From the NCBI GenBank assembly GCA_030837625.1, contig JAUPKF010000002.1, positions 168 through 64,167 on the forward strand: a stretch of DNA of 64,000 nucleotides. The letters are read 5' to 3'. This stretch comes from Patescibacteria group bacterium. GTDB lineage: Bacteria; Patescibacteriota; Minisyncoccia; Moranbacterales; UBA2206. The position numbers and the translations under genes were made by a program. The notes below the pieces were generated by a model. The model was not told where the DNA came from and did no database searches. It saw only the letters and a program-made list of their open reading frames with translations. Position 1 is the stretch's first letter. Every line of letters starts with the position of its first letter. Below are positions 6,546 through 61,791 of the stretch, in pieces.

Positions 6546-6750
6546 AGGTTACGAAATACGAAATTAACGAATTACGAAACGCTTTAATAAAATTAGTATT
6601 GCGCGGACACATTGTCCGCATTGCCATTAACTAAACTAAATCTGCCGTATTATTTACTCATTCAGCTATTCGATACATTGCGATACAATCATTACTACCT
6701 TTTAATGCGAAATGCTTTTCGTATTTCGCTTATTTCGTAGTTCGTAAAAT
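6546..6750. repeat. MITE-like 'tacgaa' element, about 200 bp, with terminal inverted repeats
   Basis: ggttacgaaatacgaaattaacgaattacgaaacgc ... gcttttcgtatttcgcttatttcgtagttcgtaaaat. Confidence 0.65.
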
Positions 6751-7519: not shown

Positions 7520-9160
7520 TTATTCGACCCAGTACTTTTTTTTCATAAATTCTTCTTCTTTTTTATTCTCCTCCTCGATCTTATTCTTAGCCTGGTTTCG
7601 CAAGGTTCCGATATCTTCTTTATTCAATTCCGCGGATATTTTCAGCAAATCTTTTTTATTGTTCAGTTTGGGATCGTCAATAACTTTCATGAGCAAAACA
7701 TCCAAAATAGCTCCGATTTTCGGCCCGGGCCCCAGCGCCAATTTTTTTATCAAATCATCGCCGTTTATTTTCAGCTGTTTTACGGAAATGGCGTCACGCG
7801 AAACTTTTTCCACCATAAATTTGAAGTGACGGAGTTTATACGGCACGGCTTTTGGCACGCCCGAGCCAAGCCGATCAGCAATCCTGACGTCGATCAAATC
7901 ATTGATATTTTCCAAGCCGACTTTGCGAACCACCCGCCGCACACCGGCTTCCCCCACTTCATCAACGTTATAATAGAACATGTGATTTTTGACCAAAAGC
8001 GAAACCTTGTCGATTATATTTCTTGAAAACCTTAACCGCTCCAAAATCCTTTCAGCCATTTTCGCTCCGGCGTATTCGTGGTTATAAAAGGTCGCGTTTT
8101 CGCCCGCGCCTCTCTTAGTTTTCGGCTTGCCAATATCGTGCAGAAGCGCCGCCAGCCGCACTTCCAACTTTTCCGACGGACATTTTTCCAAACTAGCCAC
8201 CAAGTGTTTATAAACAGTATTATACGGGCCATAGTAATGATGATGGCTTTGAGTCACGCCGTATCCGGCTTCGATTTCGGGAATGATATATTGAAGCAAT
8301 CCTGTCTCATGAAGCAATTCAATCCCCCGCGCCGGAGCGGGAGATAGAATAATTTTCTCCAGTTCGTCTTTAATTCTTTCCGCTGAAATATATTTTAAAT
8401 TGGAAGCGTTTTTATTTATGGCCGCGAAAGTCTCGTTATCAATTTTCCAGCTTTGTATTTCTTTTTTATCATTTTTTAATTTTGCATTGTCATTTCGATT
8501 TTTTCGGCCAGAGGCTGATCCGCCTTTGGCGGAGATTTTTGATTTTTGATTTTCTAAAGTTACAGCAAACCTCACGGCGCGCATCATCCTCAACGCGTCT
8601 TCATCAAATCTTTCGTTCGCATCCCCTACTGCTTTAATAATTTTATTACTCAAATCCTCCCGCCCATTGTAAGGATCAACTATTCTATATTCACTCTCAT
8701 TCTCTTTAATTTGTTCCGCTTTAGCGAGTGCAATAGCGTTTATCGTAAAATCCCTTCTCGACAAATCTTCTTCCAAGCTTTTGGCAAACTTAATCTCATC
8801 CGGATGCCTCTTATCACTATATTTTGACTCAACCCGATAAGTAGTTATTTCAACTATGATGTACTTGTCTTCTTCTTTGCTGTTTTGGATTTTGTTTTTT
8901 GGATTTTGAGATTTATTTGGAATTTGGAATTTTGGATTTGGGATTTTAACAGCTACTGTCCCAAACTCATTCTCATACACACTATCCGGAAATAATTTCA
9001 AAATCTCCTCCGGCTTCGCGCTTGTCGCCACATCCCAATCTTTCGGAATTTTATCCAATAGCATATCCCGCACGCATCCGCCCACGACAAACGCCTCAAA
9101 GCCGTTTTCTTCAAGTTTTCCAATCACTTCAACAACATACTTTGGAATTTTTTTGATCAT
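7520..9160 (-). CDS. cca: CCA-adding tRNA nucleotidyltransferase / poly(A) polymerase family with HD domain, carrying in-frame repeat insertions
   Basis: N-term GGCVRDMLL...DWDVAT (PolyA_pol head), HD region HDIGKP; start set at the internal Met (MIKKIPKY, 9160) because the upstream 33 codons overlap the neighbouring gene; the segments NPKFQIPNKSQNPKNKIQNSKEE and KNDKKEIQSWKIDNE are encoded by GAATTT-family repeat DNA. Confidence 0.85.
   Translation of the reverse strand: MIKKIPKYVVEVIGKLEENGFEAFVVGGCVRDMLLDKIPKDWDVATSAKPEEILKLFPDSVYENEFGTVAVKIPNPKFQIPNKSQNPKNKIQNSKEEDKYIIVEITTYRVESKYSDKRHPDEIKFAKSLEEDLSRRDFTINAIALAKAEQIKENESEYRIVDPYNGREDLSNKIIKAVGDANERFDEDALRMMRAVRFAVTLENQKSKISAKGGSASGRKNRNDNAKLKNDKKEIQSWKIDNETFAAINKNASNLKYISAERIKDELEKIILSPAPARGIELLHETGLLQYIIPEIEAGYGVTQSHHHYYGPYNTVYKHLVASLEKCPSEKLEVRLAALLHDIGKPKTKRGAGENATFYNHEYAGAKMAERILERLRFSRNIIDKVSLLVKNHMFYYNVDEVGEAGVRRVVRKVGLENINDLIDVRIADRLGSGVPKAVPYKLRHFKFMVEKVSRDAISVKQLKINGDDLIKKLALGPGPKIGAILDVLLMKVIDDPKLNNKKDLLKISAELNKEDIGTLRNQAKNKIEEENKKEEEFMKKKYWVE
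8455..8560. repeat. GAATTT/GGATTTT low-complexity repeat inside the cca coding region
   Basis: attttttaattttgcattgtcatttcgatttt...gatttttgatttttgattttctaaag. Confidence 0.55.
8878..8952. repeat. GAATTT/GGATTTT low-complexity repeat inside the cca coding region
   Basis: gctgttttggattttgttttttggattttgagatttatttggaatttggaattttggatttgggattttaacagc; the gctgtt...aacagc ends are inverted. Confidence 0.65.
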
Positions 9161-11324: not shown

Positions 11325-11396
11325 GCGGCATTTCGGGCAGGGAACCAGTGACAGCCCGAATGTGAATCGAGCGCTCTAATTTATCCCCCCACCAAT
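11325..11396 (-). pseudogene. degenerate tRNA-Val(CAC)-like 3' portion (outer copy) adjacent to the intact tRNA-Val(CAC)
   Basis: reverse complement ggggggataaattagagcgctcgattcacattcgggctgtcactggttccctgcccga has an anticodon arm ctcga/ttCACat/tcggg but a degraded T-arm and acceptor; it parallels the intact outer copy at 28078-28150. Confidence 0.45.
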
Positions 11397-11400
11397 TGGG

Positions 11401-11474
<74 letters not shown>

Positions 11475-11534
11475 AATTGGTGGGGGGACGAGCTGAGCTA
11501 ATCGTCCAATAAATAGTACTGACACTTTTGATTG

Positions 11535-12992: not shown

Positions 12993-15083
12993 ATGGATAA
13001 TATTAAAACACTTTTTAAGAAAACAAAAAATCAACCAATTGATATATGGCTTTTCTTTTTATTTTTGTTGAGTTTTTCCTTAAGCGTAAGGAAAGTAGTC
13101 GACTATTTTCCTGTCGAAAGAACTGATCAAAGAACTTTTAATGAGTATGCCGGCATATACGTTTATATGTCCGATATATTCTTGACACTAGCCATAGTTT
13201 GTTGGATAGTATCTATACTATATAATAACTATATAAAACAGTCAAGTGTCAAGCTGTGGATAACTCTTCTTGTCCACAGAATACTCCTATATTTTAAAAA
13301 TATTGTTCCACCTGCCCGCTATGCTTCGAAATTTCACGCCGATAGTATTATCAGCAAAACCGTAAAACCTGACAAAGAAGGTACTCTGTCCCAATTGCAT
13401 AGCGAAGCAGGCGGGCGTGGAACAATCAAAAATAACGAGGCAGACGTGGAACGATTTTCTTTACAGGCTAGCATATTGTTTATTATTCCTTTGCTTTTAG
13501 TCATTTGGTCATTCATTTCGACTTTTTGGGCAAAAAATGAAACCGTTGCTTTATTTCGATCAATTAAACTGCTTGAGTTTTACCTACTATATGTTTACGT
13601 CGCCTTGCGATTAATTCCATTGTTCCATGCGGAACATAAATCAGCAACAATACTTACGAAAAACCAATCACACTACACCCCTCACGAAAATAGCTTCGAC
13701 AAAGTATCTATGATTGTTCCACGTGGAACAATCATAGGTGTCAAAGTGTTTGATGTATTTATATGGTTAATAATATTTATAGGCGTATTTCAGTCAATTA
13801 TCGCCATTTGGCAGTTCATAATCCAACACTCTGTCGGATTATTTTGGCTAAAGGAAAGCCTAATTTCGCCGGATGTTCCAGGAGTAGCTAAAATAGTTCT
13901 CAATAGTCATAAAATAATCCGGGCATACGGACTGTTTCCACATCCAAATATACTGGGCGGATTCTTACTGTTCTCAATAATTCTAACATTACTATACAAA
14001 AAATGTTCCACGTGGAACAATGCTAATGGTATTTCAACTGTTCTACATCAGTCTGCCGATAAAGCAAGCCAAACGATTGAAATAACCACCTGGACATCTC
14101 AAACCATTCGCTTTTTAACGAAAAAGTTAAGTTTGAGAAAAGTATGGCTTATCCAAGCCTCCCTGTTTATTCAGGCTTTGGCCTTATTTCTGACATTTTC
14201 CAAATCAGCCATAATCGGGATTATAATTGCTTTGGTATATATTAATGTTCCACCTGCCCGCTATGCTTCGAAATTTCACGCCAATAGTAGTATTGATAAA
14301 ACCGTAGAGTCTAATACAGAAGGTACTATGTCCCAATTGCATAGCGAAGCAGGCGGGCGTGGAACATATGATAAAAAATGGATATACAAAATGTTCCACG
14401 TGGAACAATGGCATGTGTTTTCCTTGGGTAGTAGAAAAGTAAGCAATACAAACAAGGCCAATAAAAATTCTCGTAATGGTAATTCCGTTGTTCCACGTGG
14501 AACAATGGGCAACAACCCACTGAAAGCCCAAAGTCACTCACTTTTCGGCAGAAAAGTCATTTTAATTCTGGTAATCCTTATTCTAAGCCTTTATTTGGCA
14601 AAGCCCGATTTAAGCGCTCTTTTTACCAAAAGCCTCAAAGAAAGGCTCTTTTATCTGAACGTTGCTTATGAGACAATTTTAGATAATCCGATCATTGGAG
14701 TGGGAGCGGGACAGTTCGTGTTGAACATTCCGCAGTATGCCAACCAAACTGTGGAACAATGGCAATTCCAACCCGTCCATAACATATTCCTACTAATTTG
14801 GTCGGAATTAGGTTTGGTCGGAGTGGGCGTATTTTTATGGTTTTTATGGGCTATTTGGAGAAAATCTATATTAAGCAATGATAGTCTAAACTTGTCAACT
14901 GCATTAATTCTGCGCTATTTCAAAGCAATTTTCCTCGGCTTTCTCTTTATTATGCTTTTCGATCACTATTTATGGGACATCCAACAGGGAAGCCTGCTAT
15001 TATGGACAACCCTCGGACTAATTGCCAGCATAGATAAAAGTTCACAAAGCTACCTAAATACAGAGAACCGACGGGGTTTATAG
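12993..15083 (+). CDS. O-antigen ligase (Wzy_C/WaaL)-like polytopic membrane protein carrying six in-frame repeat-element insertions
   Basis: C-terminal Wzy_C-like region (NPIIGVGAGQFVLN...QPVHNIFLLIWSELGLVGVGVF); two about 120-bp MITE copies (13304-13434, 14246-14366) are translated as VPPARYASKFHA...SQLHSEAGGRGT; four 16-bp palindromes tgttccacgtggaaca are translated as MFHVEQ/CSTWNN/VPRGT. Confidence 0.7.
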   Translation: MDNIKTLFKKTKNQPIDIWLFFLFLLSFSLSVRKVVDYFPVERTDQRTFNEYAGIYVYMSDIFLTLAIVCWIVSILYNNYIKQSSVKLWITLLVHRILLYFKNIVPPARYASKFHADSIISKTVKPDKEGTLSQLHSEAGGRGTIKNNEADVERFSLQASILFIIPLLLVIWSFISTFWAKNETVALFRSIKLLEFYLLYVYVALRLIPLFHAEHKSATILTKNQSHYTPHENSFDKVSMIVPRGTIIGVKVFDVFIWLIIFIGVFQSIIAIWQFIIQHSVGLFWLKESLISPDVPGVAKIVLNSHKIIRAYGLFPHPNILGGFLLFSIILTLLYKKCSTWNNANGISTVLHQSADKASQTIEITTWTSQTIRFLTKKLSLRKVWLIQASLFIQALALFLTFSKSAIIGIIIALVYINVPPARYASKFHANSSIDKTVESNTEGTMSQLHSEAGGRGTYDKKWIYKMFHVEQWHVFSLGSRKVSNTNKANKNSRNGNSVVPRGTMGNNPLKAQSHSLFGRKVILILVILILSLYLAKPDLSALFTKSLKERLFYLNVAYETILDNPIIGVGAGQFVLNIPQYANQTVEQWQFQPVHNIFLLIWSELGLVGVGVFLWFLWAIWRKSILSNDSLNLSTALILRYFKAIFLGFLFIMLFDHYLWDIQQGSLLLWTTLGLIASIDKSSQSYLNTENRRGL
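13304..13434. mobile_element. MITE copy (gttccacctgcccgctatgcttcgaaat ... agcgaagcaggcgggcgtggaac) inserted in-frame in the ligase-like gene
   Basis: same TIR core (ctgcccg..atgcttcgaa / ttcgaagcaggcggg) as the intergenic copies at 18853, 24778 and 39521. Confidence 0.65.
13718..14512. repeat. four dispersed 16-bp perfect palindromes tgttccacgtggaaca (near 13720, 14010, 14392, 14493); putative joined-TIR footprints
   Basis: identical palindromes matching the gttccac...gtggaac ends of the two full MITE copies in the same ORF. Confidence 0.55.
14246..14366. mobile_element. second in-frame MITE copy, nearly identical to 13304-13434
   Basis: gttccacctgcccgctatgcttcgaaatttcacgcc...ttgcatagcgaagcaggcgggcgtggaaca. 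Confidence 0.65.
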
Positions 15084-17629: not shown

Positions 17630-17765
17630 AAATTACAAATTCAAAATTACAAATCACAAATAAATTCAAAAATCAAAACTCCAAAAATCAAAACTGTTTT
17701 TCTGCGTTTTGAATTTTGAAAATTGTAATTTATTTGGAATTTGTAATTTTGGATTTTGAATTTAT
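17630..17765. repeat. about 135-bp imperfect palindrome of the GAATTT/GGATTTT family immediately upstream of the gyrA start
   Basis: aaaattacaaattcaaaattacaaatcacaaataaattcaaaaatcaaaac ... gttttgaattttgaaaattgtaatttatttggaatttgtaattttggattttgaatttat. Confidence 0.7.
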
Positions 17766-17771
17766 ATCCAA

Positions 17772-18092
17772 CTATTCAGGCATAAATCCTTCTCCTCCAA
17801 TATTATTCTGTACATCGTCTAGATTTTTTTGGTTCTTAATCCCCTCCAACGCTCCTTTCATTTGCCCGGTTGTGTCTTGCAGGGATTTCTTTTGGGTTCC
17901 GAAATCTTCAAAAAGCTTTTTCTGGTCTTCGCTGATAAGCGGCTCGCGGTTAGCGTCTCTTTGAGCGGCTAGCGACAAAAACCAAACAGCCACTACCAAG
18001 GCCGTGAAAAAGATGGCGTATCCGCAAGCATACCGCATCCGGACGTGTTCTGGTTTTCGGCGAATTTGTTCAATTTTATTCTGAATACTCAT
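17772..18092 (-). CDS. hypothetical single-pass membrane protein (106 aa)
   Basis: one predicted TM (FFTALVVAVWFLSLAA) followed by a charged tail. Confidence 0.5.
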   Translation of the reverse strand: MSIQNKIEQIRRKPEHVRMRYACGYAIFFTALVVAVWFLSLAAQRDANREPLISEDQKKLFEDFGTQKKSLQDTTGQMKGALEGIKNQKNLDDVQNNIGGEGFMPE

Positions 18093-18096
18093 TCAT

Positions 18097-18195
18097 TTAC
18101 GAACTACGAAATAAGCGAATTACGAAATGCTCACAGCGACCCAGCAATCATAAGTCTTTTTTTCGTAGTTAGCTTATTTCGTAGTTCGTAAATTA
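18097..18195. repeat. MITE-like 'tacgaa' element (TIR tttacgaactacgaaataagcgaattacgaaatgc / ttttcgtagttagcttatttcgtagttcgtaaat)
   Basis: near-perfect terminal inverted repeats around a 30-bp core. Confidence 0.65.
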
Positions 18196-21540: not shown

Positions 21541-21580
21541 TTTTTTCGTAGTTCGCTTATTTCGTAGTTCGTAAATGCAA
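21541..21580. repeat. solo TIR of the 'tacgaa' MITE family
   Basis: ttttttcgtagttcgcttatttcgtagttcgtaaatgc. Confidence 0.55.
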
Positions 21581-21782
21581 AAGTTTGACAATATAACAAT
21601 TTAACAATATACTCTAATCACGGTTAATTATTAAGAAAAATTGAATAGGGGATGGTTTAATCTCCTTTTATCCACCCCGTAAAGTTGCTTCGCAACCACG
21701 GGGCAAGCAGTAAGATGTGTGGATAACTTCTTAATAATTACCCTCCGCTGGGTATTTTTTAATTTTTAATAACTGTTTTACC

Positions 21783-27952: not shown

Positions 27953-27988
27953 CAGGGGTCTGTAGCTCAGCTCGTCCCCCCACCAATT
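27953..27988 (+). pseudogene. 5' part of an outer tRNA-Val(GAC)-like gene (acceptor + D-stem 5' strand) interrupted in its D-loop
   Basis: gggtctgtagctcagct then cgtccccccaccaattgg leads into the inner tRNA; together with 28078-28150 it folds as a tRNA with a 6/7-paired acceptor. Confidence 0.45.
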
Positions 27989-28062
27989 GGGTGTTTAGCT
28001 CAGCTGGTTAGAGCGCCACATTGACATTGTGGAGGTCACTGGTTCGAGTCCAGTAATACCCA
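27989..28062 (+). tRNA. tRNA-Val(GAC), nested inside the D-loop of an outer tRNA-Val-like gene
   Basis: acceptor gggtgtt/aataccc, anticodon stem ccaca/tgtgg with loop ttGACat, T-loop ttcgagt; flanked by the 18-bp perfect inverted repeat ccccccaccaattgggtg / cacccaattggtgggggg. Confidence 0.85.
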
Positions 28063-28077
28063 CCCAATTGGTGGGGG

Positions 28078-28150
28078 GATAAATCAGAGCGCTACATTGA
28101 CATTGTAGAGGTTTCAGAGGTTCGAGTCCTCTCACGCCCACAGGAAGTTT
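28078..28150 (+). pseudogene. 3' part of the outer tRNA-Val(GAC)-like gene (D-stem 3' strand, anticodon arm, T-arm, acceptor 3' strand)
   Basis: ataaatcagagcgc tacattgacattgta(anticodon GAC) gaggtttc agaggttcgagtcctct cacgccc a. Confidence 0.5.
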
Positions 28151-28501: not shown

Positions 28502-29491
28502 TTATTTTTTTCTTCTCCTTCCGTGAAACGCTTGATGGACTTCTTTGAGCTGCTTGTTGGTAACGTGGGTGTAAATTTGGGTGGTGGTGATGGAAGAATG
28601 GCCGAGCATAGCTTGCACCGAGCGGATGTCGGCGCCATTAATCAGTAAATCCGTAGCAAAAGAATGGCGAAGCGTGTGCGGATGGACATCTTTGACAATT
28701 CCGGCTTTGGCGGCGTAATATTTGACGATTCTCTGGACGGAGCGGGGGGTTAATCTTAAACCAGCGTTATTATCCGTAGGGGTTCGATTAATCGAACCCC
28801 TACTTTTATTTTCGAATTTTGCCAGTCCTTTAACATCTCTCACAAACAAAGCCGGATCAATATCCATCCGCTTATCCAGATACGTCTCCAGCGCTTTCTT
28901 GGCACTTTCTGAAATAAAAACCACCCGAATTTTGTCGCCTTTTCCTCGCACGGAGAGTTCCCCGGATCCCAAATTCAACTTATCCCGATTGATGCTGACG
29001 AGTTCCGATACTCGCATTCCGGCCGAAAAAAGCATCTCCAGCATCGCTCGGTCGCGAAGCGACTTAAAATCAATTCCAGACGCCGCCCCGATAATCCTTT
29101 CCACTTCTTCCGGTTCCAAAAATTCAATTTCGCGCGCCGGAGATTTCCCAATCTCGACCTTTTCCGCGATCAATGTCTTAATGTCCCGCTTTGCCAGATA
29201 TTTAAGAAAGCTTCGAAGGGCTATAACGTAATAGCCCTGGGTAGCTTTTTTCAAGCCTTTTCCATTCTCATCTTTGTAGCGGCTCAGATGCAAGCGAAAG
29301 TTTCTTACCAATTCATCTGTAATTTCGGACGGCTTCGCTATTTTTGCCCAATCAAAAAACACCCGCAAATATCGACTATAATTTTCAATAGTCTTTTGCG
29401 AACGGTTCTTTTCTATTTCAAGATATTCCAGAAACTGAGTTTTTAGTCGCTCAATTCCACTTTTTTGTATCTTTTCTGTTTCATGTTTCAT
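28502..29491 (-). CDS. xerC: tyrosine site-specific recombinase (XerC/XerD-like integrase)
   Basis: catalytic region HTLRHSFATDLLINGADIRSVQAMLGHSSITTTQIYTHV; N-terminal SAM-like core-binding domain; 3' end lies 44 bp from the tRNA-Met 3' end. Confidence 0.85.
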   Translation of the reverse strand: MKHETEKIQKSGIERLKTQFLEYLEIEKNRSQKTIENYSRYLRVFFDWAKIAKPSEITDELVRNFRLHLSRYKDENGKGLKKATQGYYVIALRSFLKYLAKRDIKTLIAEKVEIGKSPAREIEFLEPEEVERIIGAASGIDFKSLRDRAMLEMLFSAGMRVSELVSINRDKLNLGSGELSVRGKGDKIRVVFISESAKKALETYLDKRMDIDPALFVRDVKGLAKFENKSRGSINRTPTDNNAGLRLTPRSVQRIVKYYAAKAGIVKDVHPHTLRHSFATDLLINGADIRSVQAMLGHSSITTTQIYTHVTNKQLKEVHQAFHGRRRKK

Positions 29492-29546
29492 GTTTTATGC
29501 TTCATGATAATGTGCGACATTCCCATTATACAGTGGATAACTTGCT

Positions 29547-30930: not shown

Positions 30931-31083
30931 CAAATTTCTAATTCACCTAATTTCTAATTCACCTAATAAAATTCAAAATTCATCAATACCTAATACAAAA
31001 AGTTATTTAGATTTTAACATTTTATTTTGCTATTTTGACTTTTATTAGGTGAATTAGGTAATTAGACAATTAGGTGAATTTTT
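30931..31083. repeat. about 150-bp imperfect palindromic element with 'ttcacctaatt' arms (copy 1)
   Basis: ttcacctaatttctaattcacctaataaaattc ... ttttattaggtgaattaggtaattagacaattaggtgaattt; the arms are exact reverse complements of the arms at 47028-47201. Confidence 0.75.
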
Positions 31084-33442
31084 AAACCCTCTTCAGCTTC
31101 GCGATACTCGCCGAAAGCTTCTTGAGACCAACTTTATTGAAAGCCACTGTCACAACATCTCCCTGCGACGCCACAATCATTCCCTCGCCAAAAGCTTCGT
31201 GACAAACGCGGTCACCATCTTTGAAATTGGTATTTGATATTTTGTATCCAGTGTCTAATGTTCCAAGTTTTGAATTTTGCTTGCCCGCCAAAGCGTTAGC
31301 GGCGGCGGGGTCATTGGAATTTTGATATTGTTTGGAATTTAGTGCTTGTGATTTGGAATTTGCGCTTTCGAAAAGGTGTTCGGGGACATCTTCAAGAAAG
31401 CGCGAGGGGGGATTGATTTGCGTCGATCCGTAAATATTTCTTTCCATCGTGAAAAGCAAATAAACTTTCTTTCTGGCCCGCGTAATTCCTACATACATTA
31501 GCCGCCGCTCTTCTTCCATTTGATTGGGATCAAGCATACTGCGCGAATGCGGCATAATCCCTTCTTCAAGACCCGCGATAAAAACATACTCGAATTCCAA
31601 GCCCTTGGCGCTGTGAAGTGTCATAAGATGCACCGCGTCGGACGCCTGATCGATTTTATCCGTGTCAGCTTGAAGCGCGATTTCTTCCAAAAACAAATTC
31701 AGGCCTTCCCCGCCTCGCGTCGACAAGCGATTGTCTTCGCGAGTCGAGGCGGGTTCAGCTTCGTATTCATCATATTTTTTGGCGACACTCAGAAGTTCCT
31801 GAACATTCTCATGACGCATCATTCCTTCGTCAGTTCCATCCAGCAGAAACTTTTCATACCCGGATTCAACATAAACTTTCTGGATTAGATCGGTCAGTTG
31901 CAACTTATTCTTCAACTCCGACATCCGTTTTATAAATTCACAAAACTTCGCGATTGGATCCAGTTTTGAATTTTGTATTTTGTATTTGGAATTTATTTGT
32001 AATTTGTAATTTGTAATTTGTAATTTCAAACCAAGTTCAATCGGACTTACATTTTCTTCTTTGGCGCCTTTCAGCCAATGTGCAAGAGTAACTCCCCCGA
32101 TAGAACGCCTCGGTTCATTGATTATCCTCTCCAGCGAAACCTCGTCATTAAAATTATTGATCAGCCGCAAATACGCCACCATGTCTTTTATTTCTTTCCG
32201 CTGGTAAAACTTCACCCCGCCGATTATCCGATAGGGAACGGAATTTCTAAGCATCGCTTCTTCAATAATCCGCGACTGAGCGTTAGTGCGATAGAGAACG
32301 ACAAAGCTGTTTAGGTTAATATTCTCTTTGTTTCTTAATTCATCGATCTCTGAAATTATGAACTCCGCTTCGTCCCGCTCGTTGTCCGCTTCGTATGAAG
32401 TTATCAAATGCCCGCCTTTGTTTTCGGTCCAAATTTTTTTATCTTTCCGGTTGACGTTTTTGGAAATGACGCCGTAAGCCGCGTCCAAAATCGTTTGCGT
32501 CGAACGATAATTTTGCTCCAATTTCACCACCGTCGCATCCGGATAATCTTTTTCAAAATCCAGTATATTTTGAATATCCGCCCCCCGCCAAGAATACACT
32601 CCTTGCCAATCGTCTCCACACACCCAGATATTGCGATACTTTTGCGAAAGCATTTTCACCAAAGTATATTGCGCGTGATTAGTGTCCTGGTATTCGTCCA
32701 CCATAATGTAGCGGAAAAAGTTTTGATATTTTTCCAAGATTTCCGGATAAGCTTTAAAGATTTTTACCGTCAGCATCAAGATATCGTCAAAGTCCAGCGC
32801 GTCCTGATCTTTCAATCTTTTTTGATAAGCGGTATAAATTTTTGCCACTACATCTTCCCAGTACCCACCCGCGCCTGCCGCAAATTTTTCCGCTTCAACG
32901 AGTTCGTTTTTAGCTTTGGAAATGGCGCCCAAGATCGCTTTCGGCTTGAACTGATCAATATTGATCTGCATCTCCTTCATCACTTTCTTCATCAGCGACT
33001 GCTGATCCTGATCATCGAAAATATTAAACGAGCTTTTATATCCAACCTTCTCAATCTCCCGCCTGAGAATTTTCACGCAAACCGAATGAAAAGTCCCAAT
33101 CGTCGGCAACCGATTCGAATCTACGGATGTATGCGAATCTTCGAATCTACGAATGCCCCCATCTTGTGATTCGTGAATTCGTGAATTCGGATTCATTCGT
33201 TGATTCGCATCGGATAATAATTTCATAATCCTCTCTTTCATCTCGCTCGCCGCCTTATTGGTAAACGTCACCGCCAAAATCCGCCTTGGCGAAATCTTTT
33301 TCTCCAAAATCAAATACGCCACCCGATGCGTCAGCGCCCGCGTTTTCCCCGACCCCGCCCCGGCGATAACAAGTACCGGCCCTTCCGTCGTCTCCACCGC
33401 CTGGCGTTGGGGAGGATTAAGTTTTTTGAGAATTTCACTCAT
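31082..33442 (-). CDS. uvrD: UvrD/PcrA-family ATP-dependent DNA helicase with three in-frame repeat insertions
   Basis: Walker A AGAGSGKT, motifs Ia/II (VDEYQDTN), VI (VGITRAR); start set at MSEILKK (33442); insertions: REP/MITE 33110-33214 (...HTSVDSNRL...), GAATTT repeats 31958-32032 (NYKLQINSKYKIQNSKL) and 31290-31340. Confidence 0.9.
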   Translation of the reverse strand: MSEILKKLNPPQRQAVETTEGPVLVIAGAGSGKTRALTHRVAYLILEKKISPRRILAVTFTNKAASEMKERIMKLLSDANQRMNPNSRIHESQDGGIRRFEDSHTSVDSNRLPTIGTFHSVCVKILRREIEKVGYKSSFNIFDDQDQQSLMKKVMKEMQINIDQFKPKAILGAISKAKNELVEAEKFAAGAGGYWEDVVAKIYTAYQKRLKDQDALDFDDILMLTVKIFKAYPEILEKYQNFFRYIMVDEYQDTNHAQYTLVKMLSQKYRNIWVCGDDWQGVYSWRGADIQNILDFEKDYPDATVVKLEQNYRSTQTILDAAYGVISKNVNRKDKKIWTENKGGHLITSYEADNERDEAEFIISEIDELRNKENINLNSFVVLYRTNAQSRIIEEAMLRNSVPYRIIGGVKFYQRKEIKDMVAYLRLINNFNDEVSLERIINEPRRSIGGVTLAHWLKGAKEENVSPIELGLKLQITNYKLQINSKYKIQNSKLDPIAKFCEFIKRMSELKNKLQLTDLIQKVYVESGYEKFLLDGTDEGMMRHENVQELLSVAKKYDEYEAEPASTREDNRLSTRGGEGLNLFLEEIALQADTDKIDQASDAVHLMTLHSAKGLEFEYVFIAGLEEGIMPHSRSMLDPNQMEEERRLMYVGITRARKKVYLLFTMERNIYGSTQINPPSRFLEDVPEHLFESANSKSQALNSKQYQNSNDPAAANALAGKQNSKLGTLDTGYKISNTNFKDGDRVCHEAFGEGMIVASQGDVVTVAFNKVGLKKLSASIAKLKRV
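33110..33214. mobile_element. REP/MITE (ccgattcgaatctacgaatg family) inserted in-frame inside uvrD between helicase motifs I and Ia
   Basis: ccgattcgaatctacggatgtatgcgaatcttcgaatctacgaatgcccccatcttgtgattcgtgaattcgtgaattcggattcattcgttgattcgcatcgg. Confidence 0.7.
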
Positions 33443-33460
33443 AACTAACCAATTATAGCA

Positions 33461-33500
33461 CAAAAGAAAAAAAACCCCGATTAACGCTGTCATCGGGGTG
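33461..33500 (-). terminator. rho-independent terminator (minus strand)
   Basis: ccccgatgacagcgttaatcgggg followed by ttttttttt on the minus strand. Confidence 0.6.
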
Positions 33501-33517
33501 GAACCGAGAGAAATCTT

Positions 33518-33690
33518 ACACGAATTTATCCTCACTGAGCCATTTTATAGCCCGCTCAATGAGTTTTTTCTGCCTCTCTGAAACATCTTCCCATGTATCT
33601 TCTTTCGCTGAATTCCAATACTCAGAGCTTTCATCTTCAAATAAGTATCTACCTTCATATACCGTTTCAACCTCTATCTTTATCCTCATT
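33518..33690 (-). CDS. hypothetical small protein (57 aa, MRIKIEVETVYEGRYLFEDESSEYW...)
   Basis: ORF not in the supplied track (below 60 aa), found by reading; followed by the terminator. Confidence 0.35.
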
Positions 33691-44913: not shown

Positions 44914-44953
44914 CCCGATTCGAATCTGCGAATGAATCCGAATTTACGAATGA
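44914..44953. repeat. REP/MITE half-element (cccgattcgaatctgcgaatgaatccgaatttacgaatg) at the dksA-like stop / lspA start
   Basis: begins at the taa stop codon; supplies the atgaatccgaat (MNPN) start of the next ORF. Confidence 0.65.
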
Positions 44954-45450
44954 AACACATTGTTCTATCTTTTCCTATATTATTTTTGATTTCCATCGAC
45001 CAGCTTTCTAAATATATTATCCGCGTAAAAGGCGGATTTTATATTTGCAACACCGACCTGGCTTTTGGATTGAAACCATCGTATTTTTTAGTATTTGCTA
45101 TAATATTAATAGCTATATTATCCTTAGTCGCGGTCGGAAATAGCAAATTCAAAATTACAAATTTCAAACAAATAACAATATCAAAATGCAAAACTCAAAA
45201 ATCGCTCTGGTTTGAAAAATTTGAATTTGTAATTTTGAATTTATTTGGAATTTGGAGTTTTGGATTTGGGATTTTACTCATTGCCTCCGGTGCGATATCA
45301 AATATAATCGACAGAGTATTATATGGCTGCGTCATCGACTTCATCGACCTTCATTTCTGGCCGGTATTCAATTTGGCGGATGCCTTTATCACGATTGGTG
45401 GTATAATGATAATCATGAAACACGTAGCATACAACACGAAACAACCATAG
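44932..45450 (+). CDS. lspA: lipoprotein signal peptidase II with an in-frame GAATTT-repeat insertion
   Basis: LspA motifs ([23 protein letters not shown]); the segment [20 protein letters not shown]...[18 protein letters not shown] is encoded by repeat 45118-45262; the N-terminal MNPNLR is repeat-derived and the true start may be MKHIV (44950). Confidence 0.75.
45118..45262. repeat. GAATTT/GGATTTT repeat with internal dyad symmetry inside lspA
   Basis: aaattcaaaattacaaatttcaaacaaata...aaatttgaatttgtaattttgaatttatttggaatttggagttttggatttgggatttt. Confidence 0.65.
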
Positions 45451-45494
45451 CAAATTTCTTGTTGTATGTTTCATGTTTTATGCTTCATGAGCTT

Positions 45495-47021: not shown

Positions 47022-47027
47022 GAAAAA

Positions 47028-47201
47028 ATTCACCTAATTGTCTAATTACCTAATTCACCTAATAAAATTCCCAAACGACCCAAGGTCAAATAAAATTCCT
47101 AATGCCCGAATCAAAAAACATTTGGAACTTGGAATTTTACTGAAGAATTTTTAATTTGACATTTTATTAGGTGAATTAGAAATTAGGTGAATTAGAAATT
47201 T
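47028..47201. repeat. about 170-bp imperfect palindromic 'ttcacctaatt' element (copy 2), inverted relative to copy 1
   Basis: ttcacctaattgtctaattacctaattcacctaataaaattc ... ttttattaggtgaattagaaattaggtgaattagaaattt. Confidence 0.75.
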
Positions 47202-47210
47202 GGGCACAAT

Positions 47211-48592: not shown

Positions 48593-49459
48593 ATGCAACC
48601 AAAGAAATCACTAGGACAGAATTTCCTCAGAGATAAAAATATTCTTGATAAAATAATCCGAGCCGCTGATTTAAAGGCGGATGATTTTGTAATTGAAATT
48701 GGTCCCGGAGAAGGCGTACTGACTCTTAAGCTAATTAAACATACTAGTAAGGTTATTGCCATTGAGAAAGACGAGAATCTGGCGGAAAAGTTAGCTAAGA
48801 ATTTTCAATTTTCAATTTTCAGTTTTCAATCAATTTCCAATGATCCAATTTTAAATTTTAAAAATAAAGCCGCTGTTATTGTCGGAGATATGCTTAAAGC
48901 TAACTTGCCCTTACTCATAGAAAATAATTTCGTAAATTCGGATTTATTCGTAGATTCGAATCGGTTTAATTATAAAGTTATCGCCAATATTCCGTATTAC
49001 ATAACGTCGCCGATTATTAAGTTGTTTTTGGAAACAAAATATCCGCCCAAGGAAATGATTCTGATGGTGCAAAAAGAAGTGGCGGAGCGTATCTGCGCCA
49101 GCCCCGGACAAATGAGCATCTTGGCGGTGAGCGTGCGATATTACGCCAAAGCAGAGCTGTTATTTCACGTCGACAGAAAAAGTTTTTGGCCGGCGCCGGA
49201 AGTGGATTCGGCGGTGATACGAATTCATGAAACACGAAACATGAAACATGAAACAAAAGAAGACACAAAGAACTTTTTTAGAATAGTTAAGGCTGGGTTT
49301 TCGGCTAAAAGAAAAATGTTATTAAATAATTTATCCAGCAGTTTGCATTTGGAGAAAAAAATAGTCGAGGAAAAATTGAAAAAGGTCGGGATAGATCCTA
49401 GTCGAAGAGCGCAAGAACTTTCTGTTGAAGAATGGAAAAAATTAGCGAAAATTATGTAG
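48593..49459 (+). CDS. ksgA: 16S rRNA (adenine1518/1519-N6)-dimethyltransferase with three in-frame repeat insertions
   Basis: SLGQNFL, EIGPGEGVLT motifs; inserted segments NFQFSIFSFQSISNDPILNFKNK (GAATTT repeat), FVNSDLFVDSNRF (REP/MITE 48930-48964), IRIHETRNMKHETKED (catgaaac repeat). Confidence 0.85.
   Translation: MQPKKSLGQNFLRDKNILDKIIRAADLKADDFVIEIGPGEGVLTLKLIKHTSKVIAIEKDENLAEKLAKNFQFSIFSFQSISNDPILNFKNKAAVIVGDMLKANLPLLIENNFVNSDLFVDSNRFNYKVIANIPYYITSPIIKLFLETKYPPKEMILMVQKEVAERICASPGQMSILAVSVRYYAKAELLFHVDRKSFWPAPEVDSAVIRIHETRNMKHETKEDTKNFFRIVKAGFSAKRKMLLNNLSSSLHLEKKIVEEKLKKVGIDPSRRAQELSVEEWKKLAKIM
48930..48964. repeat. REP/MITE right-end fragment inserted in-frame in ksgA
   Basis: tcgtaaattcggatttattcgtagattcgaatcgg. 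Confidence 0.6.
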
Positions 49460-57383: not shown

Positions 57384-57452
57384 CCCGATTCGAATCTACG
57401 AATAGCATTCGTAAATTCGCAGATTTGTAGACATTCGTTGATTCGAATCGGA
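57384..57452. mobile_element. REP/MITE (ccgattcgaatctacgaat...attcgttgattcgaatcgg)
   Basis: starts at the taa stop; terminal inverted repeats ccgattcgaatc / gattcgaatcgg. Confidence 0.7.
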
Positions 57453-57460
57453 TAAAGATT

Positions 57461-57850
57461 ATGCTATTCAACGTCCCACAATTCATCGACATCGAAGACA
57501 AAATCGTCGGCCCGCTGACCGCCAAACAGCTGGGCTGGTTGGGATTGGCCGGAGTGATTCTTCTGATTCTCTGGAATTTTCTCGACACTCAAGCGATGAT
57601 CATCGCCGCCGTTGTCGTCGGCGGAGTTTTCGGCGCGCTGGCGTTCTACCGCCCGTACAACCAATCTCTCATCCAATTTATTTTTTCCTCATTCCTCTTC
57701 GCCACCCGCCCCAAAATCTATATCTGGCGGAGATTCTATGATAGTATGAATACAGAAAAGAAAACCGACAAAAAAATTGAAATCGTTAAGGAAAGAAAAA
57801 AGTTGAACAGGGAGAAGATAGGAGAAATAGCGAAGAGACTGAATTCTTAA
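57461..57850 (+). CDS. PrgI/VirB3-like small membrane protein
   Basis: N-terminal VPQFIDIEDKIVGPLTAKQLGWLGLAGV, matching the PrgI-family signature; two TMs. Confidence 0.6.
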   Translation: MLFNVPQFIDIEDKIVGPLTAKQLGWLGLAGVILLILWNFLDTQAMIIAAVVVGGVFGALAFYRPYNQSLIQFIFSSFLFATRPKIYIWRRFYDSMNTEKKTDKKIEIVKERKKLNREKIGEIAKRLNS

Positions 57851-57888
57851 CCCGATTCGAATCTACGAATGAATCCGAATTCACGAAT
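57851..57888. repeat. REP/MITE left-half element
   Basis: cccgattcgaatctacgaatgaatccgaattcacgaat, starting at the stop codon; contains the atgaatccgaat used as the start of the next ORF. Confidence 0.65.
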
Positions 57889-58270
57889 AATAAAAACAAG
57901 CATAAATGTTTTATATCCGGAACTATCTTACACTATAAACGGGATTTGTTTTAATGTGCATAATAAATTAGGAAGGTTTTGCAGAGAAGTTCAATACGCC
58001 GATGAATTGGAAGCGGAACTTATCAAGAAAAAAATTCCCTATAAAAGAGAATCCAGAATATTAAAACAAGATAAATTTACTCGGAACATAATCGACTTTA
58101 TTGTAAACGACTGCATAATACTGGAACTCAAGGCAAAAAGCATTATAACAAAAGATGATTATTATCAAGCAAAGAGATACCTGATCTCATCCAATAAACA
58201 ACTGTGTCTTATTGTCAACTTCAGAGATACCTACTTAAAGCCTAAAAGAATTTTGCATAATAATTCGTAA
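57869..58270 (+). CDS. GxxExxY-family protein (PD-(D/E)XK-like)
   Basis: LSYTINGICFNVHNKLGRFCREVQYADELEAEL...IIDFIVNDCIILELKAKS...YYQAKRYLISSNKQLCLIVNF matches the GxxExxY family; the N-terminal MNPNSR is repeat-derived. Confidence 0.65.
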   Translation: MNPNSRIIKTSINVLYPELSYTINGICFNVHNKLGRFCREVQYADELEAELIKKKIPYKRESRILKQDKFTRNIIDFIVNDCIILELKAKSIITKDDYYQAKRYLISSNKQLCLIVNFRDTYLKPKRILHNNS

Positions 58271-58307
58271 ATTCGCAGATTCGCATACATTCGTAGATTC
58301 GAATCGG
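58264..58307. repeat. REP/MITE right-half element
   Basis: ttcgtaaattcgcagattcgcatacattcgtagattcgaatcgg. Confidence 0.65.
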
Positions 58308-58311
58308 TATT

Positions 58312-59001
58312 ATGGAGACTCTACATTCCTCACAACTAGCCAACAAAGCCACGACCACCGCCACCCAAAAGTATCTCGACGTTGCGGAAGTTAAGGAAGA
58401 CGTGGTGGTTTTGAAATCCGGATCTATTCGGGCGATTTTAGCCGTATCGGCTATCAATTTCGAGCTCAAATCCACCGAGGAACAGGAAGCGATTATCGGG
58501 CAATACCAGAACTTTCTCAATTCCATCGATTTTCCCTTGCAAATCCTCATCAGCTCCCGGCGGCTCAATATGGAAAATTATTTGAGTTTCCTAACCGATA
58601 AAGAAAAGCAGCAGCCCAACGAGCTTTTGCGGATGCAAATCGCCGAATACAAAAACTTCATCGACCAGCTCGTCAGCGTTTCCAACATAATGGACAAGAA
58701 TTTCTACATCATCGTTCCTTTTTCGCCGATTGAAAACAAAGACAAGGGATTCTTCTCCAAAGTTTCCAGTATGCTAAACCCCAAAAGAGAAATTATGGAA
58801 AAAAGAGAAAGTTTTGAAATGATGAAAAGCCAGCTATACCAAAGAGTCGACCACATCATCGCCGGACTGGCCGGCATTGGTCTTCGCATAATTCCGCTCA
58901 AAACCGAAGAACTGATCGAACTGCTGTTCAACTCCTACAACCCCAGCGTGTACAATTCAGTGGAATTGAAGGAAGTAAGCAAGCTGGAGCTACTGAAATA
59001 A
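58312..59001 (+). CDS. virB4: VirB4/TrbE N-terminal domain, encoded as a separate ORF
   Basis: YLDVAEVKEDVVVLKSGSIRAILAVSAINFELKSTEEQEAIIGQYQNFLNSIDFPLQILI fits the conserved VirB4 N-terminal pattern; 229 + 604 aa together match full-length VirB4. Confidence 0.6.
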   Translation: METLHSSQLANKATTTATQKYLDVAEVKEDVVVLKSGSIRAILAVSAINFELKSTEEQEAIIGQYQNFLNSIDFPLQILISSRRLNMENYLSFLTDKEKQQPNELLRMQIAEYKNFIDQLVSVSNIMDKNFYIIVPFSPIENKDKGFFSKVSSMLNPKREIMEKRESFEMMKSQLYQRVDHIIAGLAGIGLRIIPLKTEELIELLFNSYNPSVYNSVELKEVSKLELLK

Positions 59002-59152
59002 CCCGATTCGAATCTACGAATGAATCCGAATTCACGTATCCGAATAGCCTGCTACGAATAGGCACATTCGAATGGGCGCATTCGTAGCGCGCTATTCGGA
59101 TGCTTTCATTCGTAAATTCGCAGATTCGCATACATTCGTAGATTCGAATCGG
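59002..59152. mobile_element. full-length REP/MITE, about 150 bp, separating the two VirB4 ORFs
   Basis: cccgattcgaatctacgaatgaatccgaattcacg...internal palindrome ccgaatagcctgctacgaataggcacattcgaatgggcgcattcgtagcgcgctattcgg...cattcgtaaattcgcagattcgcatacattcgtagattcgaatcgg. Confidence 0.75.
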
Positions 59153-59159
59153 CTAAATT

Positions 59160-60974
59160 ATGTTTAATCTATTCAAAAAACAAAATACCGCCGAGAATCT
59201 GGATGAAATCATCGCTTCTGAGAAATTCTATCAAGAGGGCGTGGCGCGCCTCAATGATTTGATCGCGCCCGCGGCCATCAAAATCACGCCGCGCCACATC
59301 CGCGTGGGCGAAACCTTGGCGGAAACGATATTCATCATCACTTACCCCCGCTACCTCCACAGCAACTGGTTTTCTCCGATCATAAACATCGACATGCCGA
59401 TTGATATTTCAATGTTTATCCATCCCATCGAAACCTATGATATCTTGAAGACTCTTCGCAAAAACGCCACCCGGGTGGAATCCCAAGTCCATATCGAACA
59501 GGAGAAAGGACTTATCCGCGATCCGGCTTTGGAAACAGCTATGCAAGACATTGATGAACTGCGCGACAAGCTCCAGCAAGGAACGGAAAAGTTTTTCCGC
59601 TACGGCCTCTATATCACCGCTTACGGCGAGACGGAAAAAGAACTCAACGAACTGGTTCGCAGCATTGAAGCCATTTTGGAAGCGCAGTTGGTTTACGTGA
59701 AACCGGCTATTTTCAAAGCCGAACAAGGCTACAATTCTTCTTTGCCTTTAGCCAACGACGAACTGGACATCGGCACCAGCATGAACAGCGCGCCGCTTTC
59801 CACCACCTTTCCTTTCGTTTCCTCAACCTTGTCTTCCAACACCGGCATCCTCTACGGTGTCAACCGCCACAACAACAGTTTGGTCATCTTTGACCGCTTC
59901 AGCATGGAAAACGCCAATATGGTCATTTTCGCCAAGTCCGGCGCCGGAAAAAGCTATACTGTGAAATTGGAAGTTTTGCGTTCGATGATGCTGGGCACGG
60001 ACGTCGTCATCATCGACCCGGAAAACGAATACAAGCATCTCTGTGAAACTGTCGGTGGAAACTTCGTAAAAATCTCTTTGAATTCCAAAAATCATCTCAA
60101 TCCGTTCGATCTGCCGAAAGTGGCCGAAGATGAAGATCCGGCCGACATTCTCCGAAACAACATTGCTTCACTTTTGGGACTTTTGCACATAATGCTCGGC
60201 AATATCACGCCGGAAGAAGATTCGGTACTCGACCGCGCCATCCGGGAAACTTACGACGCCCGCGACATCACAGCGCAGTCCAATTTGAATATGCTCACGC
60301 CGGAATCCTTTCCCACGATGACTGACCTTTACCAAATTCTCCGCAGTCTGGAAGGCGGAGAAAACTTGGCCATCCGCTTGGAAAAATATACTGAAGGAAT
60401 TTTCGCCGGATTTCTCAACAACACCACCAACATCAAATCCGACAATCAGCTGACGGTTTTCAACATCCGCGATATGGAAGAAGAACTGCGCCCGGTGGCG
60501 ATGTATACCGTCATGCAGTTCATCTGGAACGAAATGCGGACCAACCTGAAAAAAAGATTGGTACTGGTGGACGAAGCCTGGGTAATGATGAAATATGAAG
60601 ACGCCGCTTCCTTTATGTTTGGAATTGCGAAAAGGTGTCGAAAATATTATACTGGACTTACCACCGTCACCCAGGACGTGAATGATTTTTTGAGCTCGCG
60701 CTACGGCAAAGCCATCGTAACCAACTCCTCCATCCAACTGCTTCTCAGACAATCTCCGGCCGGCATCGACGTTATCTCGGAAACATTTTATCTGACCGAT
60801 CAGGAAAAGTTTTTGCTTTTGGAATCCAACGTCGGAGAAGGAATATTTTTCGCCGGCACCAAGCACGTCGCCATCCGCGTGGAAGCATCGTACTCTGAAG
60901 ACCAAATCATCACCACCGACCCCGCCCAGCTTTTGGAAATTGAGAGGGCCAAGAAGGAGTTTGAGGAAGAATAA
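59160..60974 (+). CDS. virB4: VirB4/TraC-type conjugative ATPase (ATPase domain)
   Basis: Walker A FAKSGAGKSYT, Walker B LVLVDEAWVMM, TTVTQDVNDF motif. Confidence 0.8.
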   Translation: MFNLFKKQNTAENLDEIIASEKFYQEGVARLNDLIAPAAIKITPRHIRVGETLAETIFIITYPRYLHSNWFSPIINIDMPIDISMFIHPIETYDILKTLRKNATRVESQVHIEQEKGLIRDPALETAMQDIDELRDKLQQGTEKFFRYGLYITAYGETEKELNELVRSIEAILEAQLVYVKPAIFKAEQGYNSSLPLANDELDIGTSMNSAPLSTTFPFVSSTLSSNTGILYGVNRHNNSLVIFDRFSMENANMVIFAKSGAGKSYTVKLEVLRSMMLGTDVVIIDPENEYKHLCETVGGNFVKISLNSKNHLNPFDLPKVAEDEDPADILRNNIASLLGLLHIMLGNITPEEDSVLDRAIRETYDARDITAQSNLNMLTPESFPTMTDLYQILRSLEGGENLAIRLEKYTEGIFAGFLNNTTNIKSDNQLTVFNIRDMEEELRPVAMYTVMQFIWNEMRTNLKKRLVLVDEAWVMMKYEDAASFMFGIAKRCRKYYTGLTTVTQDVNDFLSSRYGKAIVTNSSIQLLLRQSPAGIDVISETFYLTDQEKFLLLESNVGEGIFFAGTKHVAIRVEASYSEDQIITTDPAQLLEIERAKKEFEEE

Positions 60975-60977
60975 AAC

Positions 60978-61106
60978 CCGATTCGAATCTACGAATGAAT
61001 CCGAATTCACGAATAAAGGCATCCGAATAGCACACTACAAATGTGCCCATCCGAATAACTTCATTCGTGAATTCGTAGATTCGCATACATTCGTAGATTC
61101 GAATCG
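60978..61106. mobile_element. full-length REP/MITE
   Basis: cccgattcgaatctacgaatgaatccgaattcacgaat...catccgaatagcacactacaaatgtgcccatccgaata...attcgtgaattcgtagattcgcatacattcgtagattcgaatcgg. Confidence 0.75.
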
Positions 61107-61115
61107 GATAACGAA

Positions 61116-61693: not shown

Positions 61694-61791
61694 CCCGATT
61701 CGAATCAACGAATATATGCAAATCTACAAATACTTCCCTTGTTATTATTTGTAGATTCGTGAATTCGAATTCATTCGTGGATTCGAATCGG
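61694..61791. mobile_element. REP/MITE copy
   Basis: cccgattcgaatcaacgaat...tgtagattcgtgaattcgaattcattcgtggattcgaatcgg. Confidence 0.7.

Follow-up and report, generated by a model that had tools for sequence, protein, structure and literature searches.

The locus described here raises the question of whether a VirB4 gene has been cut in two by a repeat, or whether two genes stood side by side before the repeat arrived. It lies in a stretch of 64,000 nt from a Patescibacteria group bacterium (Moranbacterales, UBA2206; contig JAUPKF010000002.1 of assembly GCA_030837625.1), called the window in what follows. Within a type IV secretion system (T4SS) operon of the window, two consecutive open reading frames (ORFs) correspond to the N-terminal part (ORF1) and to the ATPase part (ORF2) of VirB4, and the 158 nt between them consist almost wholly of one palindrome. 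An earlier note on this DNA had read the palindrome as a repetitive extragenic palindromic (REP) sequence or a miniature inverted-repeat transposable element (MITE) that split a VirB4 gene and provided the start codon of its second half, leaving either a functional split gene or a recently inactivated one. Our analysis indicates that ORF1 and ORF2 are very probably two separate, ancient genes of the T4SS of Moranbacteria-type Patescibacteria, and that the hairpin formed by the palindrome is a later arrival in a spacer that already existed. The features discussed are collected in Table 1.

The ORF1-ORF2 junction

ORF1 and ORF2 are each intact and open, and their reading frames differ. The element fills the whole gap between them, and the two products (229 + 604 = 833 aa) add up to the length of a canonical VirB4 (TrwK, 823 aa). 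Both observations favour the scenario of the earlier note, in which a once-continuous VirB4 gene was cut by insertion of a 150-bp REP/MITE that donated the second ATG. The details of the junction do not. The stop codon of ORF1 (TAA, 58999-59001) is located 2 nt 5′ of the base of the hairpin stem. The ATG of ORF2 is found 7 nt past the last paired base, outside the hairpin, and an in-frame TAA precedes it. The start of ORF2 is kept in relatives, reading MFNLFKK in the window and in the related locus L003 and MLNLFKK in L001. L001 is free of the repeat; its junction reads CAA AAA TAA ATTC ATG CTT AAT, with a gap of 4 nt. Every relative examined has this gene boundary, with the ORF1 stop and the ORF2 ATG, also where the repeat is missing; both codons are therefore inherited and neither comes from the element. 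The claim that the element supplies the second start codon is thus wrong. The reading frames of the two ORFs differ both with and without the element.

The TAA directly 3′ of the hairpin may be a duplicate of the ORF1 stop codon, that is, a target-site duplication. Deleting the element together with one TAA in silico gives TAA-ATT-ATG, nearly the L001 state. TAA is found on both sides of the copy at 57385 (at 57383 and 57453) as well as of the copy at 59003; the copy ending at 58307 lacks it. All flanks are A/T-rich.

ORF1 and ORF2 as parts of VirB4

ORF2 matches the CD1110-type VirB4 model of NCBIfam (NF045971) with an E value of 1e-109 and 367.9 bits, above the curated cutoff of 325; aa 29-572 align to profile positions 185-734 of 752. 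Its scores fall under the cutoffs of TIGR00929 and of the TraC-F-type models in the same collection. Pfam gives matches to P-loop_TraG (6.3e-29) and AAA_10 (2.8e-13), and the PDB a match to the C-terminal domain of VirB4 (4ag5, 2.6e-51), with aa 115-552 of ORF2 aligned with residues 292-735 of TrwK. Walker A (GAGKS) and Walker B (LVLVDEAW) motifs are present in the translation.

For ORF1, four VirB4 models of NCBIfam give matches with E values from 2.7e-9 to 2.6e-3, always at N-terminal model positions. VirB4_plasma (2.7e-9) aligns aa 14-136 with positions 100-234 of 894, the CD1110 model (3e-6) aligns aa 31-135 with positions 15-119 of 752, TIGR00929 (3e-4) is matched at positions 18-170 of 792 and PRK13853 at positions 7-67. 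A match to PF26593 ('TraC-like') is precomputed for P0391, a database protein identical to ORF1. The local copy of Pfam contained no match to ORF1 at E<0.1; the idea drawn from this empty result, that ORF1 has no VirB4 homology, was rejected, as it is contradicted by NCBIfam, by PF26593 and by the fold search. A profile of the ORF1 family found no match among PDB sequences, and TrwK was detected by fold comparison only. The AlphaFold2 model of ORF1, built from 64 homologues, has a predicted local distance difference test score of 87.8 and a predicted template modelling (TM) score of 0.78. When this model was compared with the PDB using Foldseek, the top 14 matches were all TrwK/VirB4 chains (R388 system, probability 1.00), with a TM score (query) of up to 0.53 over approximately 204 columns; the next match had a probability of 0.16. 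Judged by the model, ORF1 carries the fold of the VirB4 N-terminal region, and the VirB4 homology that the earlier note had ascribed to it is borne out.

The two products occupy neighbouring parts of the profiles. On VirB4_plasma, the ORF1 family covers positions 92-282 (homologues P0136 and P0218 reach 280-282) and aa 7 of ORF2 falls on position 277 of 894. ORF1 covers positions 15-119 onward of CD1110, where ORF2 begins at 185 of 752, and positions 18-170 of TIGR00929, where ORF2 begins at 242 of 792. Since the ORF1 family ends at 280-282 and ORF2 starts at 277 on VirB4_plasma, the pieces are complementary and nothing sizeable is missing. By profile alignment the pair is collinear with fused VirB4, and at a resolution of about +/-30 residues nothing is lost or duplicated where the two parts meet. 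The same positions bear on the alternative that ORF1 is an independent accessory protein derived from duplication of a VirB4 N-domain, ORF2 being a complete VirB4 alone. In Pfam, aa 103-198 of ORF2 do align with two N-domain models, TraC_F_IV and CagE_TrbE_VirB, at their ends; ORF2 therefore retains a portion of the N-terminal region, which would suit a duplication. However, ORF2 begins far inside all three full-length profiles, and ORF1 and its homologues cover the preceding positions without overlap, complementary rather than redundant. We consider a duplication very unlikely.

Selection was estimated from the ratio of nonsynonymous to synonymous substitution rates (dN/dS) in comparison with L003. 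The ratio is 0.024 for ORF1 (at dS 1.0) and 0.021 for ORF2 (at dS 0.68). Such values indicate strong purifying selection and therefore exclude a recent pseudogene. For a recently inactivated VirB4 whose halves are open by chance, the presence of an inserted repeat is the only argument; the low dN/dS of both halves, the intact Walker A and Walker B motifs, the score of ORF2 above the curated CD1110 cutoff and the retention of both genes across hundreds of lineages all contradict it and make it almost inconceivable. Judged by dN/dS, the pair is a working two-polypeptide arrangement. The functional split VirB4 envisaged in the earlier note is therefore upheld as far as function goes, but not as a product of insertion.

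The two-gene state in relatives

Unsplit versions of the gene were sought among relatives. With the joined ORF1 and ORF2 as query, the best 120 matches (80-100% identity) are all proteins of 587-628 aa that correspond to the ORF2 part only. With ORF1 as query, the best 120 proteins are all 220-244 aa long. A cluster search (1.84 billion cluster representatives, clusters at 50% identity) placed ORF1 relatives in 2311 clusters, and the best 150 of the 2311 are all without the ATPase part. A few proteins of the ORF1 family are long; their extra length consists of low-complexity P/T/Q-rich tails with no ATPase. A genome scan (one genome per species, approximately 80 GTDB species, query from 10 closer sequences) yielded 80 Moranbacteria-type loci which, together with four additional loci, gave 78 loci with both genes. 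In every one of the 78 the TrsD-like gene, which corresponds to ORF1, is located directly upstream of virB4 in the same direction and as a separate gene; no fused gene was found. The gap between the two genes has a median of 31.5 nt and is at most 10 nt in 19 loci and at most 30 nt in 39, with several loci having only 4 nt. Spacers mostly range from -1 to 30 nt. The conserved core PrgI - TrsD-like - VirB4, of which PrgI is the first gene, has the same order in L001, L002 and L003.

The hairpin element is missing from the orthologous ORF1-ORF2 junctions of most relatives. Some hairpin or a longer spacer is found at this junction in about 30 of the 78. The hairpins in the wider gaps belong to unrelated sequence families, and the spacer has therefore been colonised repeatedly. 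Apparent gaps of 447 and 206 nt (L079, L080, L084) were ruled out as insertions, as they are N-terminal P/T-rich extensions of ORF2 whose true start is located a few nt past the ORF1 stop. In these relatives (L079 2151-2599, L080 4687-5135, L084 4681-4888) ORF2 has an N-terminal P/T-rich extension of 70-150 aa. On the other side of the boundary, proteins P0265, P0136 and P0142 are TrsD-like proteins with a low-complexity C-terminal tail of 200-370 aa. Extensions and tails on either side indicate that the ORF1/ORF2 boundary is a disordered, expandable linker region. A boundary that is flexible and tolerates insertions is useful to know when this machine is modelled or expressed.

Comparison with known VirB4 systems

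TrsD, which is remotely homologous to the N-terminus of VirB4, is the commonest T4SS component found in Patescibacteria: 2221 assemblies contain 2272 homologues, of which 1664 adjoin virB4, and in Ca. Southlakia epibionticum the TrsD homologue has proved essential (PMC12102498, Microbial Genomics 2025). The window has the same order, PrgI/VirB3 - TrsD-like - VirB4, as the TrsD and VirB4 pair of that mating-pair formation (MPF)-FATA-like system (PMC12102498), with no essential difference. What the window locus has in addition is a palindromic element at each junction and, between the PrgI and TrsD-like genes, a PDDEXK_3 cassette.

TrsD/TraD and TrsE/TraE of the staphylococcal pGO1/pSK41 type (NF041427) and further pairs in Bacillota likewise have a homologue of the VirB4 N-terminus (approximately 200-270 aa) upstream of, and often overlapping, an ATPase gene of about 620 aa. 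The hosts of those pairs are Bacillota conjugative plasmids, whereas the window carries a chromosomal system of an epibiotic Patescibacterium. On a Pontibacillus plasmid (L175) a gene for a 274-aa 'hypothetical protein' (1609-2433) overlaps the 5′ end of a VirB4 gene of about 620 aa, and on B. cereus p30102_3 (L176) a gene for a 216-aa 'hypothetical protein' (1812-2462) does the same. Compared with the ORF1-family profile by hhalign, the upstream proteins match with probabilities of 99.9 (E 7e-35, Pontibacillus) and 99.0 (E 6e-18, B. cereus). As these annotations indicate, the annotation of Bacillota plasmids under-represents the split TrsD-like/VirB4 form. In its overall length, the order of its domains, its ATPase motifs and the fold of both parts, the window pair resembles canonical single-chain VirB4 (TrwK of R388, 823 aa; CD1110, 752 positions), except that the first 180-280 positions or so are a separate polypeptide. 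The pairs of PMC12102498 and of the Bacillota plasmids show that the two-polypeptide form is old and already described.

The element did not, then, split the gene. The coincidence of the break with the element is real, as the hairpin fills the gap, but the same break is present in relatives without the element and no causal link follows. With no fused gene in 78 loci, a boundary that is present without the element and may be only 4 nt wide, the same gene pair on Bacillota plasmids, a start codon outside the hairpin and frames that differ irrespective of the element, the cutting of a continuous VirB4 gene is extremely improbable. The TrsD-like/VirB4 pair is ancestral, strongly selected and known from the literature. 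In T4SS loci of Patescibacteria it should not be scored as a broken gene, nor should a repeat be credited with it.

In the arrangement that we propose, the TrsD-like ORF1 would supply the missing N-terminal part of VirB4 in a PrgI/VirB3-VirB4 membrane complex. Where relatives have no repeat, the narrow or overlapping junction would couple translation of ORF2 to that of ORF1. The 150-nt hairpin, a gene-less member of the PDDEXK_3-arm family, would have been inserted later in the small spacer beside the TAA stop. We suggest that the insertion was tolerated because the stop and start codons remained intact. Once folded, the hairpin would also place the two codons only about 9 nt apart again, as the stem is flanked by 2 nt on the side of the stop and 7 nt on the side of the start, and this reunion may explain the tolerance as well.

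Several points weigh against this reading or narrow it. The assembly of ORF1 and ORF2 into one VirB4-like unit is what we infer from their sequences, and the hairpin may or may not affect translation of ORF2. The match of ORF1 to the TrsD/TraD model NF041427 (6e-9) reaches 36 bits against a curated cutoff of 200; by this score ORF1 is only distantly related to staphylococcal TrsD and falls outside the curated family. The split may have arisen by fission of a full VirB4; alternatively, a TrsD-like protein and a core ATPase may have been fused in other lineages. Even L003, the nearest relative with a known sequence, is at dS 0.7-1.0, and its corresponding junctions carry arms of another family; with no empty and filled pair of sites within one species, the insertion of the hairpin is therefore undatable.

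Table 1. Positions of the genes, element copies and cassettes (window coordinates unless a locus is named)
Feature	Position	Strand	Basis or remark
PrgI/VirB3-like small membrane protein	57461..57850	+	Pfam PrgI 3.5e-9
ORF1, TrsD-like, N-terminal part of VirB4 as separate polypeptide	58312..59001	+	229 aa
ORF2, VirB4 ATPase without the first ~180-240 profile positions	59160..60974	+	604 aa
Gene-less 150-nt hairpin, ORF1-ORF2 spacer	59003..59152	+	RNA fold; outer arms are those of the PDDEXK_3 cassette
TAA directly 3′ of the hairpin element	59154..59156	+	Sequence reading; compare L001 empty site TAA-ATTC-ATG
Short 67-nt gene-less copy, junction of 435-aa gene and PrgI	57385..57451	+	
PDDEXK_3 gene-bearing copy, PrgI-ORF1 junction	57852..58307	+	
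GxxExxY / PDDEXK_3 nuclease gene, 133 aa	57869-58270	+	Pfam PDDEXK_3 1.2e-19, TIGR04256 6.8e-20
Gene-less copy, junction of VirB4 and 190-aa membrane protein gene	60978..61107	+	
Gene-less copy, junction of 190-aa gene and Rce1-like gene	61695..61791	+	
Solo left arm, directly after stop of DksA/TraR-like ORF, overlaps lspA start	44915..44951	+	
Full CGAAT-arm family copy, in frame inside pcrA/uvrD (31082..33535, minus strand)	33110..33213	+	
Solo right arm, in frame inside rsmA/ksgA (48593..49459)	48925..48964	+	Pfam RrnaAD 6e-58
Cassette loci elsewhere	L003 5517-5993 and 124-612; L012 6638-7154; L085 9984-10445; L089 9948-10430; L095-L174		

The hairpin element

Folded as RNA, the region 58990-59170 forms one long hairpin with the base of the stem at 59003/59152 and a minimum free energy of -77.9 kcal/mol. 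Shuffled sequences have a mean of -39.3 +/- 3.8 kcal/mol (z = -10.1), and none of 200 is as stable. Of the 19-mer end motif CCGATTCGAATCTACGAAT, the window contains 14 copies, seven per strand and with up to three mismatches, against 0.02 expected. Copies of the element fill five consecutive junctions of the T4SS operon, all in the same orientation. The hairpin shares its outer 37-45 nt with the PDDEXK_3 unit located 700 nt upstream. Gene-less hairpins were considered as deletion derivatives of the PDDEXK_3 cassette and this was rejected: the shared part is limited to the arms of about 37-45 nt, and the inner part of the hairpin is a palindrome of its own. As only the arms are common to both forms, the relation is one of 'same ends'.

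The label REP/MITE fits in part. Bacterial MITEs, the REPs and REP doublets forming hairpins (REPINs) that go with REP-associated tyrosine transposases (RAYTs), and Rickettsia palindromic elements are likewise short, multi-copy, fully palindromic and found in the intergenic spacers of operons. The window element has the traits of a MITE in its terminal inverted repeats, its small size (150 nt) and its many copies (seven left and seven right ends in 64 kb). However, the PD-(D/E)XK GxxExxY gene is the only one found between the arms, both in the window and in 72 of 76 metagenome cassettes, and no transposase sharing these ends was seen, the search for transposases not having extended beyond the window. 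The ends, AACCCGATTCGAATC and GATTCGAATCGG, are without the GTAG or CGTC head of REP and REPIN-RAYT systems, and no RAYT is located between any pair of arms in the window, the whole genome not having been searched. Nor is a transposase or RAYT seen next to the element, and in these respects it differs from REPs and from REPIN-RAYT systems. It differs from MITE and REP systems also in that the sole gene between its arms codes for a 133-aa PD-(D/E)XK (GxxExxY) nuclease and in that the arms consist of four C-N-AAT sub-repeats.

The hairpin might be maintained by a role in the transcript of the operon, as an RNase III processing site, as an mRNA stabiliser or as a brake that sets the TrsD:VirB4 ratio, which would be compatible with two ancient genes. 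The uniform orientation of the copies at five consecutive junctions of one operon, the hairpins of a separate family that the sister genome L003 has at these junctions, the hairpin or longer spacer in about 30 of 78 relatives and the very stable structure are all consistent with such a role. Half of the relatives, however, have a gap of at most 30 nt and no hairpin, and the families differ among genomes. Rfam contains no credible match for the hairpin, and promoter and terminator scans gave results at chance level. Copies of the same family are found inside coding regions as well (pcrA, rsmA), and a selfish element therefore fits better than a regulator. We regard a transcript function as unlikely.

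GxxExxY nuclease cassettes

The PDDEXK_3 gene between PrgI and ORF1 is bracketed by inverted arms (57852-57888 and 58271-58307) of 37 nt that are 86% complementary. In L001 the PrgI-ORF1 junction is a 1-nt overlap with no insert. In L003 the arrangement is reversed: a PDDEXK_3 cassette occupies the ORF1-ORF2 junction, the PrgI-ORF1 junction contains a gene-less hairpin, and the arm sequence of both differs from that of the window. In L085, a PDDEXK_3 gene 75% identical to that of the window and with the same arm family is located between genes for a glycosyltransferase and a UDP-glucose dehydrogenase; in L089, one that is 60% identical is located between murA and mreB. As the locations differ between genomes, the cassettes are probably mobile, and the nuclease may have a part in this.

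The generality of the cassette was assessed with 80 metagenome loci that contain related PDDEXK_3 genes, 76 of which were testable, and with 215 shifted controls. An inverted repeat with a score of at least 12 brackets 72 of 76 genes and 3 of 215 controls; at a score of at least 14 the counts are 68 of 76 and 0 of 215 (Mann-Whitney p = 3e-37). In these loci the neighbours of the cassette are mostly co-directional (upstream 46/51, downstream 41/44), the left arm is at most 12 nt from the upstream stop in 40 of 46, and the end of the right arm is at most 12 nt from the next start in 34 of 41. The arms have a common design, cGAT-x-C-N-AAT, TAC-N-AAT, AT-x-C-N-AAT, TAC-N-AAT, that is, four sub-repeats about 8-10 nt apart, and the N of C-N-AAT is mostly uniform inside one cassette. 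Gene-less arm copies are located near the cassette in only 2 of 17 loci, and the dense array of the window operon is therefore not the general rule. Many close PDDEXK_3 homologues are found on contigs of 0.5-3 kb, a pattern expected where repeats break metagenome assemblies.

The catalytic D...E-x-K residues of the PDDEXK_3 protein are conserved. Its predicted fold gives weak, generic nuclease-fold matches to small structure-specific PD-(D/E)XK nucleases (Hjc resolvases, tRNA-splicing endonuclease and Cas4; E 0.04-0.2), and a substrate was not assigned from them, as they are too weak. PADLOC gave no match for the protein; in PHROGs it weakly matches one family of unknown function. Our full-text literature searches on GxxExxY, PDDEXK_3 and palindromic elements of Patescibacteria yielded no description of the cassette. 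What may be new is the well-supported regularity that GxxExxY genes form hairpin-bracketed cassettes exactly filling operon junctions, together with the in-frame copies in pcrA and rsmA.

A tentative explanation, which we hold to be possible rather than probable, is that the hairpin, which has no gene of its own, is a remnant or a satellite of selfish cassettes of a class not yet described. Such a cassette would consist of a PDDEXK_3 gene for about 130 aa within arms of approximately 40 nt (four C-N-AAT, about one helical turn apart). It would land co-oriented and exactly in the junction of two operon genes, from the stop codon of the first to the start codon of the second, and leave persistent hairpins, including some in frame in essential genes. 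The arms, as hairpin or cruciform, would be the target recognised by the nuclease, which would drive homing or cut-and-copy spread, a nuclease-based counterpart of REPIN-RAYT. The regularity of the cassette suggests a testable role for the GxxExxY family, which is listed with no known function, and provides a way into the genome dynamics of organisms with very small genomes.

In-frame copies and other repeats of the window

The pcrA ORF is read through its copy of the element, which gives an insert of 34 aa; the product matches Pfam UvrD-helicase at 1.7e-92. In the alignment with 2pjr, aa 32-111 correspond to residues 5-84 and aa 146-252 to residues 89-195, and the insert is located between residues 84 and 89. 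In RsmA, the solo right arm of the CGAAT family gives an insert of 8 aa when compared with KsgA of B. subtilis (6ifs). Rickettsia palindromic elements are likewise found in frame within coding genes; this holds for the pcrA and rsmA copies, while the ORF1-ORF2 hairpin is intergenic.

A second in-frame insert of about 15 aa is found in RsmA at approximately 48790-48850, in comparison with KsgA of B. subtilis, and comes from a repeat of the TTTTCAATTTTCA type. In lspA (44932..45450), the signal peptidase II gene, a palindromic element of another family (AAATTACAAATTCAAAATTACAAAT...) is located at 45132-45275, apparently in frame. Further copies of the AAATTACAAATTCAAAATTACAAAT family are found at 17630-17763, 31957-32032 and 8878-8946. 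At least three more families of short palindromic or low-complexity intergenic repeats, of the TTACGAAATACGAAAT, CTAATTCACCTAAT and CATGAAACA types, are present in the window (6549-6749, 18087-18193, 21541-21584; 30931-31083, 47024-47202; 29472-29507, 45413-45490, 49225-49256). The genome is unusually rich in such short repeats for its size class. Longer repeats are an inverted pair of 142 nt (11359-11500 and 27963-28104), 16 kb apart and 90% identical, and a direct repeat of 124 nt (13301-13424 and 14243-14366) that is 89% identical. The palindrome TGTTCCACGTGGAACA has four copies between 13705 and 14507, in or near ORF 12993..15083.

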